DNA of 64,000 nucleotides from an uncultured Bacillota bacterium (GTDB taxonomy: Bacteria > Sysuimicrobiota > Sysuimicrobiia > Sysuimicrobiales > Segetimicrobiaceae). Shown in pieces: positions 23,512 through 33,012 of the stretch (position 1 is its first letter; every line of letters begins with the position of its first letter). A program made the position numbers and the translations under genes. Below the pieces are notes generated by a model, which had not been told where the DNA came from, did not search any database, and was given only the letters and a program-made list of their open reading frames with translations. Where the stretch lies: assembly GCA_963804645.1 (NCBI GenBank), contig CAWDRG010000013.1, positions 23,982 through 87,981 on the forward strand, read 5' to 3'.

Positions 23512-24288
23512 GTGCAGATCCGCTTCGAGGACGTCCACAAGAGTTACCGCCGGACCGACGGCACCACGATCGAAGCGCTCTCGGGCATCGACCTGGTCAT
23601 CGGCGAAGGCGAGTTCGTCGCGTTCGTCGGCCCGAGCGGATGCGGCAAATCCACCCTGCTGCTGCTCACCGCCGGCCTCGTGCCGCCGTCCGCCGGGCGC
23701 GTGGTGTTCGAAGGACCGGCCTCCGGGCAGCCGCTCACCGGGTTCGTGTTCCAGGAGTTCGCCCTATTTCACTGGCGGACGATCCTCGAGAACGTGGCGT
23801 TCGGGCTCGAGGTCCGGGGCGTGCCTCCGGCGTCGCGCGACGATCGCGCGCGCGAACTCATCCGCCTGGTCGGCCTCGACGGGTTCGAGGGACGCTATCC
23901 CGCGGAGCTCTCCGGCGGCATGCGGCAGCGCGTCGGAATCGCGCGGGCGCTGTGCGTCGATCCCGCGGTGCTGCTGATGGACGAACCGCTGTCGGCGCTC
24001 GACGCGCAGACGCGCCAATTGATGCAGGAAGAGATCCTCGGGATCTGGGAACGCACGCGGAAGACCGTGCTCTACGTCACCCACAACATCCAGGAAGCCG
24101 CGTTCCTGGCCGACCGGATCGTCGTCCTGTCGCGCCGGCCCGGCCGCGTCCGCGCGGTGCTGCCGGTGCCGTTCGGGCGTCCGCGCGGCGAGGATCTGTT
24201 CGCCGATCCCGGATTCGGCCGGTTTGGCCAGGATGTGTGGCGCATGATCCGCGATGAGGCCCGCACCGCGATGCGCGAGGAGGCCTAA
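23512..24288 (+). CDS. NitT/TauT-family ABC ATP-binding protein
   Basis: GPSGCGKST, LSGGMRQR, LLMDEP, VTH. Confidence 0.93.
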   Translation: MQIRFEDVHKSYRRTDGTTIEALSGIDLVIGEGEFVAFVGPSGCGKSTLLLLTAGLVPPSAGRVVFEGPASGQPLTGFVFQEFALFHWRTILENVAFGLEVRGVPPASRDDRARELIRLVGLDGFEGRYPAELSGGMRQRVGIARALCVDPAVLLMDEPLSALDAQTRQLMQEEILGIWERTRKTVLYVTHNIQEAAFLADRIVVLSRRPGRVRAVLPVPFGRPRGEDLFADPGFGRFGQDVWRMIRDEARTAMREEA

Positions 24289-26049: not shown

Positions 26050-26790
26050 ATGAGGACTCCATTGACGGGCAAAGTGGCTCTCGTAACGGGCGGGGGCACG
26101 GGCATCGGCCGGGCCTGCTCGCTCGCGCTCGCCGGCGCCGGCGCCGCGGTGGCCGTGAACTACAGCCGCTCGCGCGAGGACGCCGAGCGGACCGCCGACC
26201 AGATTCGGACGCAGGGCGGCAAGGCGATCGCGGTCCAGGCCGACGTCTCGAAGGCGGCGGAGGACGACGCCATGGTGGCCCGCGTCGTCCGCGAGTGGGG
26301 ACGGCTGGATGTGCTCGTCAACAACGCCGCGACGACGAAGTTCGTGGACCACAAGAACCTCGACGGGCTCAGCGAGGAGGACTGGGATCGGCTGTTCGCG
26401 GTGAACGTCAAAGGGGTGTTCTTCGTCACCCGCGCCGCGGCCCGCGCGATGACGGACGGCCGCGTGATCAACATCGGATCGGTCGCCGGCCTGAACGGCA
26501 CCGGGAGCTCGATCGCGTACGCGGCGACCAAAGCCGCGGTCCACGTGATGACCAAGTCGCTCGCGCGCGCGCTCGCGCCCCGGATCACGGTCAACACGGT
26601 CGCCCCCGGCCTGATCGAGACCCGGTGGCACGCGGGCCACGAGGCCGCCAACGCGGCCCGCGCGCAGGCGATGCTGGTGAAGCGGATCGGCCAGCCCGAG
26701 GACATCGCGCACATGGTGCTCAGCCTCGCGACCGCGGACAACTTTCTCACCGGGCAGGTCATCTTCATTGATGGAGGCGCCACGCTGTAG
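26050..26790 (+). CDS. short-chain dehydrogenase/reductase
   Basis: TGGGTGIG, NNA, YAATK, VAPG. Confidence 0.9.
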   Translation: MRTPLTGKVALVTGGGTGIGRACSLALAGAGAAVAVNYSRSREDAERTADQIRTQGGKAIAVQADVSKAAEDDAMVARVVREWGRLDVLVNNAATTKFVDHKNLDGLSEEDWDRLFAVNVKGVFFVTRAAARAMTDGRVINIGSVAGLNGTGSSIAYAATKAAVHVMTKSLARALAPRITVNTVAPGLIETRWHAGHEAANAARAQAMLVKRIGQPEDIAHMVLSLATADNFLTGQVIFIDGGATL

Positions 26791-26950
26791 CGGCGCGGGC
26801 GCCGGGTGTCCGACACCCCAACGGTTCGGCGACAGCCCTAAAGAATAGGCAATTTCTCGCACCACAGCCCTTTCGGCGAGCCGTTTGTCGCAGGGGTCCT
26901 GTGGGTTTTTGACCGAACGCGGGTCGGCCCCCCATAATTTTTTCTTCGCA

Positions 26951-26980
26951 GCAGGATTTTGGGGGGAGATAACTGAATAG
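26951..26980 (+). promoter_or_regulatory. SigH-like promoter in IS copy 1
   Basis: GCAGGA-N18-GAATAG, conserved in copy 2. Confidence 0.5.
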
Positions 26981-27052
26981 TACTAAGGCATTTCAGTCAC
27001 CAAAGCCTGGCGCCCAGCGGATGACCCGAGACGGGTGTCGAAGGGAAGGCCG

Positions 27053-27406
27053 ATGCGGATTCCCACCCACCCGACCCTCATCCGGCGGCAATTGGACGCC
27101 CGCGTGCAGCAGTTGGCGGCGCAGGGGCCGGTGCTGGCGGCCAGTTTAGTGAAGATCGCGCGCCGCTGCGGGCGGCCGGGCTGCCACTGTACGCAGGGCG
27201 CGCTGCACGTGGGCCATTACCTGTCGTACAAAGTGGCGGGCAAGACGCGGATGGTGTACGTGCCGGTCGACCTCGTCGAGGAGGTCCGGGGGTGGGTCGC
27301 GGAGCACCGCCGGTTGCGCCAATTGACGCAGGAGATCACGCAACTCACGCTGGCCCAGATCCGCGGGCACGTGACGGCGCGGAAGCGGCGGGCCGGCCGG
27401 GCCTAA
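27053..27406 (+). CDS. DUF6788-like small Cys/His-rich transposase accessory protein
   Basis: ASLVKIARRCGRPGCHC..G.LH..YL....GK....YVP. Confidence 0.8.
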   Translation: MRIPTHPTLIRRQLDARVQQLAAQGPVLAASLVKIARRCGRPGCHCTQGALHVGHYLSYKVAGKTRMVYVPVDLVEEVRGWVAEHRRLRQLTQEITQLTLAQIRGHVTARKRRAGRA

Positions 27407-28751
27407 GCGCCCTCGGGCAGACATTCCACCACACGATCCAGCACTTCTGGCCGGCGTTGAACCAGTGGCTGGCCGCGCTGCCGGACACGCGCCATCAGCC
27501 GTTCATCGAGTACGACCCCGAGTTTCTCGCCTGGTGGGGGCTCTTGCTCTTCTGCTGTAAACTGGGCAGTCGGCGCCAGTTGGACTTTGACTTGCGCGAT
27601 CCGGCGACGCAGGTGCTCCGCAATGTGAACCGGCTCGCCGGGACGCAGCACGCGACCTTGCCGGTGCACGACACGTTGGACCACTTCTTGGACCATCTGG
27701 GGAGTGCGCCGCTGGCGGCGCTGCGGACCCAGATGGTGCGCCGCCTGATTCGGATGAAGGTGTTGGATGGCGCGCGCCTGCTCGGCCGCGTCGTCGTCGC
27801 GATCGACGGGACGGGGCATCTGCACTTTCGGCGGCGGCACTGTCCCCAGTGTTTGGTGCGGCAGCATCCCGCCTACGACGCGTATCTGCACATGGTCGAA
27901 GAGGCGAAACTCCTCGGCCCGGCGGCCTCGGGCTGTCCCTCGGGACGGCCTTTATTGAGAACGCCGATCGTCCGTCGCCGGTGGGCCGGGATCCCGCGGC
28001 GTGGAAGCAGGACTGCGAGCTGGCGGCATTCCGCCGCCTGGTGCCGGCCCTGCGGCAAGCGTATCCCCAGATGGCCTTCTGTGTGACGAGCGATGCGCTG
28101 TATGCGTGCGCGCCGGCGGTACGATTGGTCGAAGCCCAGGGGTGGAGCTATGTGTTTACCTTCAAGGCGGGGAACGCGCCGACGGCCTGGGCCGAGTTTC
28201 AGGCCGTGATGGCGTTGTGCCCGGAGAATGTCCTGCGGCTGACCCTCCCCGACGGGACGCAGCAAGTGTACCGCTGGGCGACAGGGATGTCGTCGGACGA
28301 TGGGACCGGGCGCAGCGCGTATGGGTTCAACGCCCTGCGGTGCGAGGAGACGGTGAAGGCGACGACGACGACCTTCGTGTGGATGACGAACCTCCCGGTG
28401 AGCCGGGACACGGTGGTGGAGATTGCGACGAAAGGAGGGCGACGCCGCTGGACGATTGAGGCCGGGTTCAATGTGCAAAAAAACAGCGAGCTCAACCTGG
28501 AGCACGCCTACAGCACCGATCCGGAATTGATCAAGGCCTACTACTATCTCCTCCAGATCGCGCATATGATGCTGCAACTGCTGGAGCGCGGGAGTTTGCT
28601 CCGGCGCTTGGCCCAGCGGCACGGCAAAACGCCGGTGGCCCTCTTTGGCAGTCTCAAGAACATCGCCCGCCGGCTCCTCGAGGCGCTCCGCCACCACGTC
28701 CTTCCCGACGAGCCGAGACCGGCCATCCAAATCCGCTTCGATACATCCTAA
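27292..28751 (+). CDS. DDE transposase, frameshifted at ~27916 (one G missing relative to copy 2); start uncertain
   Basis: AIDGTG, SDALYA, GRRRWTIEAGFNVQKN. Confidence 0.85.
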
Positions 28752-29041
28752 GAGCGGTTCGCTGGCGGCTGCTCCGGCTCTCGTACTCGCTGTGCTCGCT
28801 GCTATGTTCCGCTTCTCGAAGTCATCGCTTCGAGCTCCCTCCCTATCACGCTCGTTTGACCCTTCCGCGATGCGGTCCCAGCCCTCCGGCTTGCCAGGTC
28901 CTATTCCTCATCGCTGGTTCGGCGACAGCCCTGAAGAATAAGAATTCGTCGCACCTCGCCCCCCCGCGGTAAGCGGTTAGCAGCACGCGTCCGCGACGAT
29001 GCGTGTCCCCAGGCGGTTTCTCGCCAATTATTTTCTTCGCA

Positions 29042-29071
29042 GCAGGAATTTCAGGGGTCAATACTGAATAG
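29042..29071 (+). promoter_or_regulatory. SigH-like promoter in IS copy 2
   Basis: GCAGGA-N18-GAATAG. Confidence 0.5.
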
Positions 29072-29144
29072 TGGATCGCTTAGCAGGCATCCTCGGCGGC
29101 GCGCGGGGTGGGGGCGCGGGGCGTGGTGTCGAAGGGAATGAACC

Positions 29145-29507
29145 ATGCGCATGCGGGACCACCCGACGCTGCAGCGTCGCCAGCTCGACGCGCGGGTCAA
29201 GCAATTACAGGCCCGCGGGCCGGTGCTGGCGGCGAGCTTGGTGCAAATCGCGCGGCGCTGCGGCCGGCCGGGGTGCCACTGCGCGCAGGGGGCGCTCCAC
29301 GTGGGGCACTACCTGACGCGCTCGGTCGACGGCAAGACCCAGACCACCTATGTCCCGGTCGAGCTGGTGGCTGAGGTTCGCGCATGGGTCGACGAATACC
29401 AGCGGCTGCGCCAGGTGATCCAGGAGAGCACGGAGCTAGCGCTGGCGCGGATCCGGGGCCACGTCCGCGCCCGGAAGCAGCGGGCGGGTCGATCCACGGG
29501 ACGCTGA
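29145..29507 (+). CDS. DUF6788-like small Cys/His-rich transposase accessory protein
   Basis: ASLVQIARRCGRPGCHCAQGALHVGHYL. Confidence 0.8.
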   Translation: MRMRDHPTLQRRQLDARVKQLQARGPVLAASLVQIARRCGRPGCHCAQGALHVGHYLTRSVDGKTQTTYVPVELVAEVRAWVDEYQRLRQVIQESTELALARIRGHVRARKQRAGRSTGR

Positions 29508-30841
29508 GCTCCGCCTTTCGGCGGACGGTCCAGCACTTCTGGCCGGCGCTCAATCAGTGGCTGGATGCGCTGCCGGACACCCGATATGTGCCGTTCATCG
29601 AGTACGACAAGAAGTTTCTGGCCTGGTGGGGGGTGTTGCTGTTCTGCTGCAAGCTGGGCAGCCGGCGCCAGTTGGACTTTGACTTACGCGATGCGACGAC
29701 GCAGGTGCTGGGCAATGTCAATCGGCTCGCCGGCACGCAGCAAGCGACCTTGCCGGTGCACGACACGTTGGATCACTTCTTGGGGCATGTGGGGAGCGCG
29801 CCGCTGGCGGCGCTGCGGACGCAGATGATCCGGCGGCTCCTCCGGATGAAAGTCCTGGATGCGGCGCGGTTGCTGGGGCGCGTGGTGGTCGCGATCGACG
29901 GGACCGGCCATCTCCACTTTCGCACGGAGCATTGTCCCCAGTGCTTGGTGCGGCGTCATGCGACCCACGACGTGTATCTGCACATGGTCGAAGAGGCGAA
30001 ACTCCTCGGGCCCGGCGGCCTCGGGCTGTCCATGGGGACGGCGTTTATCGAGAACGCCGATCGGCCGGCGCGGGCGGGGCGCGACCTGGACTCATGGAAG
30101 CAAGACTGCGAGCTGGCCGCGTTTCGCCGCCTGGTACCGAGCCTGCGGGAGGCGTATCCCCAGACGGCCTTGTGTGTGACCAGTGACGCGCTGTATGCGT
30201 GTGCGCCGGCCGTGCGGTTGGTCGAAGCCCAGGGCTGGAGCTATGTGTTCACGTTCAAGGCGGGGAACGCGCAGACTGCTTGGACCGAGTTTCAGGCCGT
30301 GTTGGCGTTGTGCCCGGAGCACGTCCTGCGGCTGACCCTGCCGAATGGCACGCGGCAGGCGTACCGATGGGCGACGGGGATGACGGCGGAGGATGCGCAC
30401 CGGCGCCCGTACCGGTTCAACGCCTTGTTGTGCGAGGAGACGGTCAAGGACACCACGACGACGTTCGTGTGGATGACGAACCTGCCGGTGACTCGGGAGA
30501 CGGTCGTGGAAATCGCGATGAAAGGGGGGCGACGTCGCTGGACGATTGAGGCGGGATTCAATGTCCAAAAAAACAGCGAGCTGAACTTGGAGCATCCCTA
30601 CAGCACCGATCCGGAGTTGATCAAGGCCTACTACTATCTCCTGCAGATCGCACACATGATGCTGCAACTACTGGAGCGGGGGAGTCTGCTTCAGCATCTG
30701 GCCCAGCGGCACGGCAAAACGCCGCTGGCACTGTTTGGCAGTCTCAAAAACATCGCCCGCCGGCTCCTCGAGGACCTGCGCCATCACCTGCTTCCCGAGG
30801 AGTCGAGACCCGCCATCCAAATCCGCTTCGATACCTCCTAA
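29384..30841 (+). CDS. DDE transposase (intact; start uncertain)
   Basis: AIDGTG, SDALYA, GRRRWTIEAGFNVQKN. Confidence 0.88.
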   Translation: MGRRIPAAAPGDPGEHGASAGADPGPRPRPEAAGGSIHGTLSSAFRRTVQHFWPALNQWLDALPDTRYVPFIEYDKKFLAWWGVLLFCCKLGSRRQLDFDLRDATTQVLGNVNRLAGTQQATLPVHDTLDHFLGHVGSAPLAALRTQMIRRLLRMKVLDAARLLGRVVVAIDGTGHLHFRTEHCPQCLVRRHATHDVYLHMVEEAKLLGPGGLGLSMGTAFIENADRPARAGRDLDSWKQDCELAAFRRLVPSLREAYPQTALCVTSDALYACAPAVRLVEAQGWSYVFTFKAGNAQTAWTEFQAVLALCPEHVLRLTLPNGTRQAYRWATGMTAEDAHRRPYRFNALLCEETVKDTTTTFVWMTNLPVTRETVVEIAMKGGRRRWTIEAGFNVQKNSELNLEHPYSTDPELIKAYYYLLQIAHMMLQLLERGSLLQHLAQRHGKTPLALFGSLKNIARRLLEDLRHHLLPEESRPAIQIRFDTS

Positions 30842-31017
30842 ACACCGGGGCGCTGGTGGCTGCTCCGGCTCTCGCACTCGCTGTGCTCGCTGCGCTCTTC
30901 ACCCTCTCGAAGCCGATCGCTTCGAGCCCACTCTCCATCACGCTGTTTCCGGCGTTCCCAACCCGCTCCCGGATGCCCGGCCTGCCGGGTCCTATTCCTC
31001 ACCGTTGATTCGGCGAA

Positions 31018-32314
31018 GGTAGTGTACGGTGTTGTGTGTAAAAGCAGGGACCCCGAAGAGAGAGGGCGTACCCCCGACCTGACCAACCGAAAGGAGGGAT
31101 ACGCCCGATGGCCAGTGTAGCCGCACTGACCGATCTCACCGTAGCCGATTTGTGGAGGGAGGTCAAGGATGAAGCGACCCTGTGGGGCGATGTGTCTCGG
31201 GAGACGCTCCGCACGGTCAAGCTCTTGTTGGAGAACCGGATGCACGATGAGTTGATCAACCATCTGAATGCTGGCCGGTATACTCGGAATCCGGACCGGC
31301 AGGGGTATCGGAATGGCGTCTACCGCCGCCGCTTGGTGACGACGTGGGGCACCATTCCCGATCTCCATATCCCCCGGGCCCGCCAGAGCGGGTTCCAGCC
31401 CTCGGTGCTCGGCCGCTACCAGCGCCGCACCAGCGACGTCAACACGCTCGTCCGTGCCGTCTTCCTCGGCGGCCTCTCGACCCGCCAGGTCGGGCCCGTC
31501 CTCGCCAAGCTCCTCGACGATGTGGTGAGCCCCACGACCGTCTCGACGATCACCCGGGCCTTGGATCAGGCCGCGGCGGCCTTCCACCACCGGACGCTGG
31601 GCGATCACTATCAATATCTGTTCCTCGACGCCGTCAGCCTCCGGGTGAAAGGGCTCGCGGGGAGCAAGCGCCGCTTGATTCTCGTGGCCTACGGCATTCG
31701 GCCGACCGGGCAGCGGGACCTGATCGATTTCCGGCTGGCCCGCTACGAGACCCAAGCCACCTGGGAAGCCTTTCTCACGACGCTGGCCTGCCGCGGGTTA
31801 GTGGGGAAGCAGTTGCAGCTGATTACGACGGACGGCCAGCGGGGCCTCCATGCCGCCCTCGATTTGGTCTATTCGGACGTCCCGCGCCAAGCGTGCTGGG
31901 TCCATGTCCTCCGCAACGTGGCCAATCGGCTGCGGGTCAAGGACCGGGAGGCGTGTCTGCGCATGGCGCGCCGGATCTATCAGGCGCCGACCGCCCACGC
32001 CGCGCGCCGCCTCCTGCGCCAGTGGGTCCAGGCCTGGCAGGCCACCGCCCCCGCGGCGGTCGCCTGTCTGACGCGCGAGGAGGACGCTCTGCTCAGCTTC
32101 TATGCCGTCAACGAGGCGGACTGGCGCCGGGTGCGCACGACGAACGCGATTGAACGGGTGTTTCGCGAAGTCCGCCGGCGCACGCGCCCCATGACGTGCT
32201 TCACGAACGTGGCCAGCTGTGATCGGATTATCTATGCGATCGTTCAGGCTCTGAATGTCCGGCAGGCGAGGCGCTCTCTCTCACGGGAATTTACACAAAA
32301 CACTTGACACTACC
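31018..32314 (+). mobile_element. IS256-family insertion sequence
   Basis: 25-bp IRs GGTAGTGT...TGTGTAAA (21/25 match); perfect 9-bp TSD TTCGGCGAA at 31009-31017 and 32315-32323. Confidence 0.95.
31108..32307 (+). CDS. IS256-family transposase
   Basis: YRNG..R, GLSTR, LFLDA, TTDG, QACWVH, RTTNAIERVFREVRRR. Confidence 0.95.
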   Translation: MASVAALTDLTVADLWREVKDEATLWGDVSRETLRTVKLLLENRMHDELINHLNAGRYTRNPDRQGYRNGVYRRRLVTTWGTIPDLHIPRARQSGFQPSVLGRYQRRTSDVNTLVRAVFLGGLSTRQVGPVLAKLLDDVVSPTTVSTITRALDQAAAAFHHRTLGDHYQYLFLDAVSLRVKGLAGSKRRLILVAYGIRPTGQRDLIDFRLARYETQATWEAFLTTLACRGLVGKQLQLITTDGQRGLHAALDLVYSDVPRQACWVHVLRNVANRLRVKDREACLRMARRIYQAPTAHAARRLLRQWVQAWQATAPAAVACLTREEDALLSFYAVNEADWRRVRTTNAIERVFREVRRRTRPMTCFTNVASCDRIIYAIVQALNVRQARRSLSREFTQNT

Positions 32315-32319
32315 TTCGG

Positions 32320-32333
32320 CGAACATCTGTTTG
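32320..32333 (+). promoter_or_regulatory. LexA operator (Gram-positive-type SOS box)
   Basis: CGAACATCTGTTTG directly upstream of lexA, overlapping the putative -35. Confidence 0.8.
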
Positions 32334-32360
32334 CGTTGCCACGCGTGTGTGTGTTATAAT
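32331..32360 (+). promoter_or_regulatory. sigma70/A promoter of lexA
   Basis: TTGCGT-N18-TATAAT with extended -10 TGn. Confidence 0.75.
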
Positions 32361-32397: not shown

Positions 32398-33012
32398 GTG
32401 GGCAAAGGGCTGACGAAGCGGCAGCGGGAAATCCTCGCCTATGTGATGGACAACATGCAGGAGCGCGGATACCCGCCGTCGGTGCGTGAGATCGGGACCG
32501 CGCTCGGACTGACCAGCAGCTCCACCGTGCACAGCCATCTCGCGGCGCTTGAGAAGAAGGGCTTCATTCACCGCGACCCTAGCAAGCCGCGCGCGATCGA
32601 AATTCTGAAGGACGGCGCGAGCCAGCCCCCCAAGCGCGTCGTGCATGTGCCGGTCCTCGGCCGGATCGCCGCGGGACAGCCGATCTTCGCAGAAGAAAAC
32701 ATCGAGGACGTGTTTCCCCTCCCCCGCGACTTCGTGCGCGAGGACGCCGCGTTCATCCTGCGCGTTCGCGGGGACAGCATGATCGACGCCGGGATTCACG
32801 ACGGGGACTACCTGGTGGTGCGCCAGCAGGCGACCGCCAACAATGGGGAGATCGTCGCCGCGATGCTCGGCGACGAAGCCACGGTGAAGCGCTACTACCG
32901 CGAGCGGGACCACATCCGGCTGCAGCCTGAGAACAGCACGATGTCGCCGATCATCGCCCGGGACGTCACCGTCCTCGGCAAGGCGATCGCACTGATCCGC
33001 CGCCTTCCCTAG
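32398..33012 (+). CDS. lexA: SOS repressor LexA
   Basis: [20 protein letters not shown] cleavage site, GDSM, TVK. Confidence 0.97.

Follow-up and report, generated by a model that had tools for sequence, protein, structure and literature searches.

Insertion sequences piled up at a lexA promoter and evidence for target choice by promoter distance in two transposon types

Background

Some insertion sequences (ISs) choose specific targets, such as dif sites, REP elements, attTn7 and RNA-guided sites. IS231A, a member of the IS4 family, prefers bent DNA and the ends of Tn4430, and targeting of the retrotransposons Ty3 and Ty1 works by tethering to transcription factors. The present work concerns a pile of three ISs located immediately upstream of the gene lexA in a window of 64,000 nucleotides (the whole stretch of DNA that was analysed; positions 23,982 to 87,981, forward strand, of contig CAWDRG010000013.1, GenBank assembly GCA_963804645.1) from an uncultured Bacillota bacterium, placed by GTDB in the family Segetimicrobiaceae of the Sysuimicrobiota. 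Two members of the pile, ISa1 and ISa2, are IS4-like elements coding for a DUF6788 protein besides their transposase, and the third one belongs to the IS256 family. The pile is probably due to a way of choosing targets common to both element types, in which it would matter how far a site lies from a sigma-70-type core promoter and not what the target sequence is.

Several described systems share parts of this behaviour. IS231A is similar in that its transposase, of IS4 type, picks targets by structure and not by sequence; its landmark is a different one, and it is not known to have a DUF6788 partner or a relation to promoters. A subgroup of the IS1202 family inserts beside the dif and pdif sites of XerCD (PMC10132070; bioRxiv 10.1101/2022.12.17.520857). 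As summarised in these reports, its insertions resemble ours in being orientation-specific, in lying at a fixed distance of a few base pairs from a protein-binding site, in target site duplications (TSDs) devoid of consensus and in occupying a safe haven. They differ in that the landmark is a recombinase site there and the -35/-10 hexamers here, in the transposase family, and in the accessory open reading frame (ORF) of our elements, DUF6788. Retrotransposons such as Ty3 and Ty1 insert upstream of genes transcribed by RNA polymerase III (PMC5911963). Their integration, too, takes its position from a promoter or transcription complex. It occurs a short way upstream of strongly expressed genes, tRNA genes among them, and repeated insertions spare the gene. 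These are, however, eukaryotic retroelements equipped with an integrase, and tethering has been demonstrated for them, whereas here we only infer it.

In Escherichia coli, IS5 and IS1 insert upstream of bgl, glpFK, fucAO and flhDC (PMC2753651, PMC11894529, PMC9678765). These are likewise hotspots in regulatory DNA upstream of promoters, but the abstracts describe them as broad, tied to DNA structure or regulators and activating silent operons, and report no single-base register to the -35 hexamer. Eukaryotic Mutator relatives of IS256 favour the 5' ends of genes (bioRxiv 10.64898/2026.05.18.725947) and, as outlined there, share with the IS256-type element at lexA a Mutator-type transposase, TSDs of 8-9 bp and a bias to gene starts. 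For bacterial IS256 members at large, no fixed distance to the -35 hexamer was found in literature searches, only one of which was aimed at this family. Searches on IS targeting and promoters, covering listings and the openings of abstracts, returned no bacterial IS of any kind with such a fixed distance.

Results and discussion

Insertion sites of DUF6788 elements

Sites of DUF6788 ISs, read outwards, have a common layout, in which the right end of the element is followed by the TSD, 8 nt, a -35-like hexamer, 16-18 nt and a -10 hexamer. The register of ISa at lexA is GTTCGGCGA-acatctgt-TTGCGT-18-TATAAT; other ISa sites read GCGCGCGTT-acacatcc-TTGACA-18-TATAAT, GGCGTCCGT-actggtcg-TTGACG-17-TATTAT and ACTCGGTGC-tgttcccg-TTGACA-17-TATAAT. 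This genome (G000) contains 24 DUF6788 matches, and two further element types found in it behave in the same way as ISa: ISb (about 1990 bp, termini CAGCGATTTCGCAAA, 10-bp TSD, five copies) and ISc (about 1940 bp, 9-bp TSD, two copies). The promoter register applies to each of the 13 independent sites that ISa, ISb and ISc occupy in this genome. Their flanks are unique, with BLAST identity ending at the IS ends, and the TSD is perfect in 12 of 14 copies, the imperfect ones being those of ISa2 at lexA and of ISb_C2. Among the downstream genes are rplJ (L10), greA, rimP, an S1-domain gene, genes for a phosphoribosyltransferase and methylmalonyl-CoA mutase, tRNA-Met and tRNA-Pro; genes such as rplJ, greA, rimP, the S1-domain and phosphoribosyltransferase genes and those for tRNA are typically strongly expressed.

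The 13 sites were joined with eight from seven other genomes of the phylum (94 genomes searched), seven from four Planctomycetota genomes and two from metagenome contigs, which gives a set of 30. Criterion A, a -35 hexamer matching in at least 3/6 positions at offset 8 together with a -10 hexamer matching in at least 4/6 at a spacer of 16-18, holds for 24 of them, and a stricter criterion for 12. The background of criterion A amounts to 0.24% of 400,000 random positions and to 0.26% of control positions 40-200 nt upstream of long ORFs (binomial P 5e-46 for an earlier count of 19/24). When the offset was scanned from 0 to 20, 24 matches appeared at offset 8 and at most two at every other offset. 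The right end faces the promoter-like motif at 30/30 sites; TTG is exact at 22 of them, and the -10 hexamer matches in at least 4/6 at 26. In the column profile, information is present only at TTG (+9 to +11) and in the -10 region, with none in the TSD or the 8-nt spacer. Independent DUF6788-IS sites share a fixed distance and a fixed orientation to one landmark, and this pattern recurs in three piles and in two phyla.

Near lexA, where only about 50 nt separate the stop codon of the upstream short-chain dehydrogenase (SDR) gene from the -35 hexamer, one could think of random insertion followed by purifying selection in a very short intergenic region that tolerates elements at this spot only. 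Three insertions within 1 bp, the offset peak at a single base over 30 sites of differing intergenic length, and the low frequency in the upstream-of-gene control make such an origin extremely improbable.

Two loci of the set, L040 (G068:C85) and L038 (G069:C165), belong to two species of the genus and carry ISc-like elements in front of orthologous promoters. They align collinearly with 83% identity through IS and flank, and their TSDs now differ; judged from this alignment, they are probably one old insertion.

Insertion sites of IS256-type elements

In IS256-type elements of the clade present at lexA, the duplication, 8 or 9 bp long, ends 7 nt upstream of the -35 hexamer, with the element in either orientation. 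Seven of nine IS256-A copies of this genome have a -10 hexamer matching in at least 5/6 positions at 37-40 nt from one end, which is the right end in four cases and the left end in three. Thirteen IS256-like loci were examined in other genomes of the phylum, of which four gave no inverted repeat (IR) pair and two only spurious ends; five of the seven related copies with credible ends fit the rule, and in one more, TTGCTG stands at the expected offset. Altogether, 12 of 16 copies of the clade with credible ends fit, against a random expectation of 0.29% (P about 7e-28).

A hybrid promoter was considered and rejected. The outward TTGACA in the right IR of IS256, 5 nt from the end, would need a -10 hexamer about 12 nt into the flank, and the actual value is 37-40 nt. 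Both element types also occur near each other elsewhere: at G000:C17:488238-492132, ISa2 (at the hpt promoter) and IS256-A (at TTGCCA-17-TATACT) lie 520 bp apart, each at the edge of its own promoter.

The lexA operator

Orthologous lexA upstream regions of the family contain CGAAC-N4-GTTTG in 20/20 cases, at a fixed distance from TGnTATAAT; the box is followed by TTGC(A/G)T and, after 17-18 nt, by TGnTATAAT. Positions 32320-32333 of the window accordingly form a conserved operator-like box overlapping the -35 hexamer, of the Cheo type GAAC-N4-GTT(T/C), for which LexA binding is predicted. The initial annotation had regarded the site as a targeted safe-harbour hotspot that leaves promoter and operator intact, directed possibly by bound LexA, by its release during the SOS response, or by the palindrome GTTCG-G-CGAAC. 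The idea of a targeted safe harbour that spares promoter and operator is supported, and the feature common to all sites is a promoter at a fixed distance. As for LexA or the palindrome steering the transposases here, the target does overlap the conserved box, whose first four bases fall inside the duplication, the IS256 TSD TTCGGCGAA is itself symmetric, and the hpt promoter site on contig C17 has GAACGTGAGTAC between -35 and -10. Other copies, however, speak strongly against it. The assembly (22 contigs, 5.3 Mb) holds two further ISa1, three further ISa2 and eight further IS256-like copies, and the further ISa copies are flanked by perfect 9-bp TSDs of unrelated sequence (GGTCTCCGT, CGTTACGCC, GCGCGCGTT, GGCGTCCGT and ACTCGGTGC). 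A genome scan for CGAAC-N4-GTTYG gave 42 strand-hits, and the box lies within 200 bp of only one of 20 IS sites of this genome, the lexA site itself, which is the outcome that the annotation had named as speaking against its idea; other putative SOS promoters from the scan are free of ISs. Moreover, the TSD columns carry no information, the left half of the 11-bp palindrome, GTTCG, is conserved in 0/20 lexA orthologues, and the promoter rule holds at the promoters of rplJ, greA, rimP and tRNA genes. Steering by LexA or the palindrome is consequently very improbable. The box would be involved only because it overlaps the -35 hexamer of the lexA promoter, with its first bases within the target. 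A regulator may have no part in the IS stack that adjoins its operator.

A second LexA paralogue (about 46% identical) is encoded at G000:C9:347478-348074 and was also found in 21 of 22 other genomes of the family searched.

Structure of the lexA pile

The three elements are complete and lie head to tail in the same orientation (Table 1), 42 nt behind the SDR stop codon. Their junctions read GTTCGGCGA / ISa1 / GTTCGGCGA / ISa2 / ATTCGGCGA-A / IS256 / TTCGGCGAA / CATCTGT-TTGCGT, where CATCTGT and then TTGCGT stand to the right of the IS256 TSD. The base-level layout given in the initial annotation proved accurate by sequence and by BLAST against the whole assembly, and the target that it had rebuilt by excising the three elements, GTTCGGCGAACATCTGTTTG, was confirmed.

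Table 1. Features of the IS pile and its surroundings (positions in the window)
Feature	Position	Strand	Details	Basis
SDR gene, upstream neighbour	26050..26790	+		Pfam adh_short E 1.4e-54
Target copy 1	26824..26832	.	GTTCGGCGA	sequence
ISa1, IS4-like	26833..28916	+	2084 bp, termini CAG...CTG	BLAST vs assembly
ISa1 DUF6788 ORF	27035-27406		inside ISa1	
ISa1 transposase	27292-28086 and 27849-28751		inside ISa1; frameshifted, two frames	
Target copy 2	28917..28925	.	GTTCGGCGA	sequence
ISa2	28926..31007	+	2082 bp	BLAST vs assembly
ISa2 DUF6788 ORF	29145-29507		inside ISa2	
ISa2 DDE transposase	29384-30841		inside ISa2; intact	
Target copy 3	31008..31016	.	ATTCGGCGA, one G>A at 31008, then A	sequence
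IS256 TSD, left copy	31009..31017	.	TTCGGCGAA	sequence
IS256-family element	31018..32314	+	1297 bp, IRs GGTAGTGT...	Pfam, NCBIfam
IS256-family transposase	31108-32307			Pfam Transposase_mut E 2.1e-84
IS256 TSD, right copy	32315..32323	.	TTCGGCGAA, perfect 9 bp	sequence
LexA-box-like operator	32320..32333	.	CGAACATCTGTTTG	kept in 20/20 orthologous lexA loci
lexA core promoter	32331..32360	+	-35 TTGCGT 32331-32336, 18-nt spacer, TGT-TATAAT, -10 32355-32360	orthologue conservation
lexA	32398..33012	+		Pfam LexA_DNA_bind 1.3e-27, Peptidase_S24 9.9e-37

ISa1 and ISa2 are 80.5% identical. They share the left termini CAGCCCT(A/G)AAGAATA and the right termini ...CCTATTCCTCA(T/C)CG(C/T)TG, and each codes for a DUF6788 protein of 120-123 aa (PF20586, E about 1e-17), followed by a DDE transposase of about 485 aa. 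The ISa1 copies on contigs C1 and C15 are 99.3-99.7% identical to the one at lexA; ISa2 is 100% identical to the copy on C9 and 99.95% to one copy on C17. The IS256 element shows 94.9-97.4% identity to other copies, and 90.7% over the 5' part of an interrupted copy on C2. Near the left end of ISa1, positions 26888-26938 contain a terminator-like hairpin followed by TTGACC-18-CATAAT, and ISa2 has a hairpin in the same relative place (29012-29054); in ISa1 this arrangement may serve as insulation from read-in combined with the element's own promoter. The frameshift of the ISa1 transposase is located at 27915, and an additional G follows this position in contigs of two metagenome runs; the transposase of the C15 copy likewise consists of two frames, and that of the C1 copy is intact.

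The element at 31018-32314 belongs to the IS256 family (Pfam PF00872, 284 bits, cut-off 21; NCBIfam NF033543, 302.9 bits, cut-off 150). Members of this family have imperfect terminal IRs and target duplications of 8-9 bp, and the element has both: its ends, GGTAGTGTACGG... and GGTAGTGTCAAG..., are imperfect IRs, enclosed by a perfect 9-bp TSD. Placement of ISa, ISb and ISc is less straightforward. The IS4 family is characterised by a DDE triad with the signature Y-x2-R-x3-E-x6-K and by target duplications of 9-12 bp, a range that includes the 9 bp of ISa and ISc and the 10 bp of ISb. In the ISa2 translation, ...AIDGTGH..., ...VTSDALY... and RWTIEAGFNVQK (R-x3-E-x6-K) can be seen by eye, with G at the expected position of Y. 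NCBIfam IS4 models gave 21.7-47.3 bits for the three types, below their cut-offs of 115-152, and the IS701, IS1634 and IS1380 models remained far under theirs. Pfam DDE_Tnp_1 (cut-off 23) was passed by ISb (32 bits) and ISc (26 bits) only, and ISa reached 18 bits with DDE_Tnp_1_4 (cut-off 34.7). The transposases resemble IS4/IS701 only under curated cut-offs and were therefore not filed as IS4 members.

Since ISa2 is identical to another copy, one may ask whether the tandem is false and arose in assembly by the collapse or mis-joining of repeats, the more so as no contig bridging 26832/26833 (SDR-ISa1) or 28916-28926 (ISa1-ISa2) was among the metagenome matches listed. Yet every joint has a matching target duplication, which a mis-join would not make, and an independent contig of peat-metagenome run X1, corresponding to 30979-31271, runs from the end of ISa2 through ATTCGGCGAA into the start of IS256. 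In addition, contigs of peat runs X1 (depth 6.5) and X4 (depth 16.1) pass straight from 26824 to 32315 and lack the 5490 bases in between, with the sequence predicted by removal of the elements (in X1 with one extra G at the joint). These contigs carry a few single nucleotide polymorphisms on both sides, which assigns them to a close strain whose site is empty. An assembly artefact is in our opinion exceedingly unlikely, and the stack of three elements in one 9-base target before lexA is confirmed. Empty alleles, which the initial annotation had proposed to look for, are represented by the peat contigs and by the orthologous lexA loci, IS-free in 20/20 cases (23 genomes of the family searched); partly filled alleles, sought along with them, did not occur among the metagenome matches listed. 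The X1 contig covering 30979-31271 shows nine letter differences and five insertions or deletions within the first 100 bases of IS256, and may stem from a variant allele or from a path of the graph that passes through a related copy.

Further piles and order of insertion

Three piles are present in this genome, at lexA and on contigs C15 and C2. The pile on C15 (C15:173132-176681) consists of ISa1, CGTTACGCC-A, IS256d, TTACGCCA, 7 nt, TTGACA-16-TATAAT and tRNA-Met, where IS256d is a 71%-identical relative of IS256 and the targets CGTTACGCC and TTACGCCA overlap. The one on C2 (C2:159835-167121) starts, in the direction towards the promoter, with a decayed IS256-A copy that a 2.1-kb element interrupts; an ISc-like element and ISb come next, and then 8 nt and TTGCGG-16-TATACT. 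Versions of (C)GCGGCCCG(G) stand between its members, and the registers of the two outer ones are off by 1-2 bp.

At two loci, the right end of ISa and an IS256-type end are exactly 10 bp apart, as would be expected if the elements attracted one another, ISa targeting IS256 ends or IS256 targeting DNA beside ISa ends, with the promoter being incidental. Yet 11 of 13 DUF6788-IS sites and most IS256-A sites have no adjoining IS and still show the promoter distance. The IS256 end that faces ISa differs (left on C13, right on C15), on C2 it is IS256 that forms the outermost member, and nothing resembling a -35 hexamer is present 8 nt inside IS256 ends. The three piles also differ in the order of their element types. 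This favours an independent use of the shared promoter landmark over attraction between elements. We consider mutual attraction highly unlikely.

According to the promoter-distance rule, each integration would recreate the target beside an intact promoter and the next element would enter the promoter-proximal copy, so that the pile would grow towards the promoter. Insertion at a fixed distance recreates the target by the promoter, and later arrivals are therefore expected nearer to it. Polar growth, which the initial annotation had found compatible with the layout, is what this rule predicts, the newest element being nearest to the promoter, and the C15 pile fits it exactly. At lexA, the order would be ISa1, then ISa2, then IS256. 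In favour of this order are the frameshift in ISa1, at which metagenome copies carry the extra G, and the identity of ISa2 to a sibling copy.

Weight of the evidence

A number of observations weigh against target choice by promoter distance or against the order deduced from it. Among IS256 elements of the same genome, only one of eight copies of subtypes B, C and D follows the rule, and the IS256-A copies C9 and C2b break it. So does L193. Promoters were recognised from consensus matches and conservation, and a stricter consensus scan misses the lexA promoter, the -35 hexamer of which matches in 3/6 positions. Six of the 30 DUF6788 sites fail criterion A, L002 and L174 having a poor -10 hexamer. 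Five sites (L005, L006, L036, L038 and L045) are defined by the right end only, their left TSD not having been found, and the count of 30 includes both L038 and L040, probably a single ancestral event. The copies seen are survivors of selection and do not display de novo target choice. In the lexA pile, simple polar growth does not account for G>A at 31008; this base lies at the edge of the staggered cut of IS256, and the change may be a repair error at integration. The IS256 element, newest by the model, differs by 2.6-3.3% from every other intact copy.

The selection of sites has to be taken into account as well, since many DUF6788 loci were left out: 10/24 in this genome, 14/20 in the phylum, 16/20 in Planctomycetota and 76/80 in metagenomes. 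Those of this genome comprise the ISc-like element in the C2 pile, three matches beside serine recombinases, three of the ISe repeat, two of IS1380 type and one on C5. In the metagenome set, 80 loci were kept of 358 relatives, most of them IS-only contigs, and CAG-type IRs with a perfect TSD were found only in L079 (identical with the C9 locus of this genome), L081 and L148. Locus L151 (IR 11/18, TSD 7/9) was left out as a chance pair; it has no promoter and would count as a miss. Other pairs returned by the end-finder (non-CAG ends, 8-bp repeats, GC-rich) were left out as chance matches before counting. A search of genome contigs with the ISa2 transposase yielded three loci only, and in a plasmid collection its relatives were only 24-30% identical.

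Mechanism of target choice and the DUF6788 protein

In the mechanism we propose, DUF6788 elements would integrate with the right end (3' end of the transposase gene) facing the promoter, leaving 8 nt between the 9- or 10-bp duplication and the -35 hexamer, and IS256-type elements of the clade would integrate in either orientation with 7 nt left between duplication and hexamer. Promoter-edge targeting as the underlying rule is strongly supported statistically; concerning its molecular basis, we infer, with roughly even chances, that the transpososome is placed by the promoter-bound RNA polymerase holoenzyme or by its bend around -48.

The same rule could be read directly from DNA, with the transposase or DUF6788 recognising TTG(ACA), selection removing copies within genes, and RNA polymerase having no part. 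TTG is indeed the most informative feature, exact at most sites, only surviving copies are seen, and the DUF6788 model has a Cys3His knuckle and a beta-sheet that could bind DNA. On the other hand, eight sites devoid of TTG keep a -10-like hexamer at the right spacing, and it can therefore be argued that the whole promoter is measured; the unrelated IS256 transposase, which has no DUF6788, picks a target 1 bp away; and no copy lies at a TTGACA-like motif lacking a -10 hexamer, with L174 and L002 as possible exceptions. Direct readout is for us rather unlikely. The TTG-less sites and the neighbouring target of the unrelated transposase make a polymerase-promoter complex or a bend likelier than recognition of the -35 hexamer alone.

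For DUF6788 elements, the zinc-knuckle protein may act as an adaptor. Its predicted fold (predicted local distance difference test score, pLDDT, 89.4) comprises an N-terminal helix, a Cys3His knuckle (C39, C44, C46, H52), a beta-hairpin and a 46-residue helix. Comparison of this model with the PDB by Foldseek gave no match at E <= 0.001, and a wide VIA-align search returned generic helical-hairpin look-alikes only (best Z 8.4), with no functional lead. Complex prediction of DUF6788 with residues 296-382 of sigma-A gave a score of 0.15, under the mark of 0.32, and counts neither for nor against an interaction. A literature search on the name DUF6788 found no papers. The protein also occurs outside IS4-like elements, at L225 (G000:C11:12000-16000) and L230 (G000:C9:199600-203600): here DUF6788 stands ahead of a large serine recombinase (Resolvase, Recombinase, Zn_ribbon_recom) and also occurs in one open frame with a DDE_Tnp_1_4 transposase of IS1380 type (E 5e-101). 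It is conceivable, if still somewhat doubtful, that the holoenzyme is a landing beacon for two unrelated transposon lineages, which would integrate to the exact base at about -52 to -43 (for a start site taken to lie 7 nt behind the -10 hexamer), with DUF6788 being a portable promoter-targeting adaptor.

Conclusions

With the holoenzyme as landing beacon, bacteria would have an equivalent of the way in which Ty3 is directed to genes of RNA polymerase III. If target choice by promoter distance is true, it would explain how ISs multiply in compact genomes without killing genes, just outside core promoters that often belong to highly expressed housekeeping and tRNA genes, and also why IS piles recur at a single target. 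DUF6788 would gain a testable role. The insertions could further serve as natural markers of promoter positions in uncultured phyla, and the elements could yield a tool that places cargo immediately upstream of active promoters.

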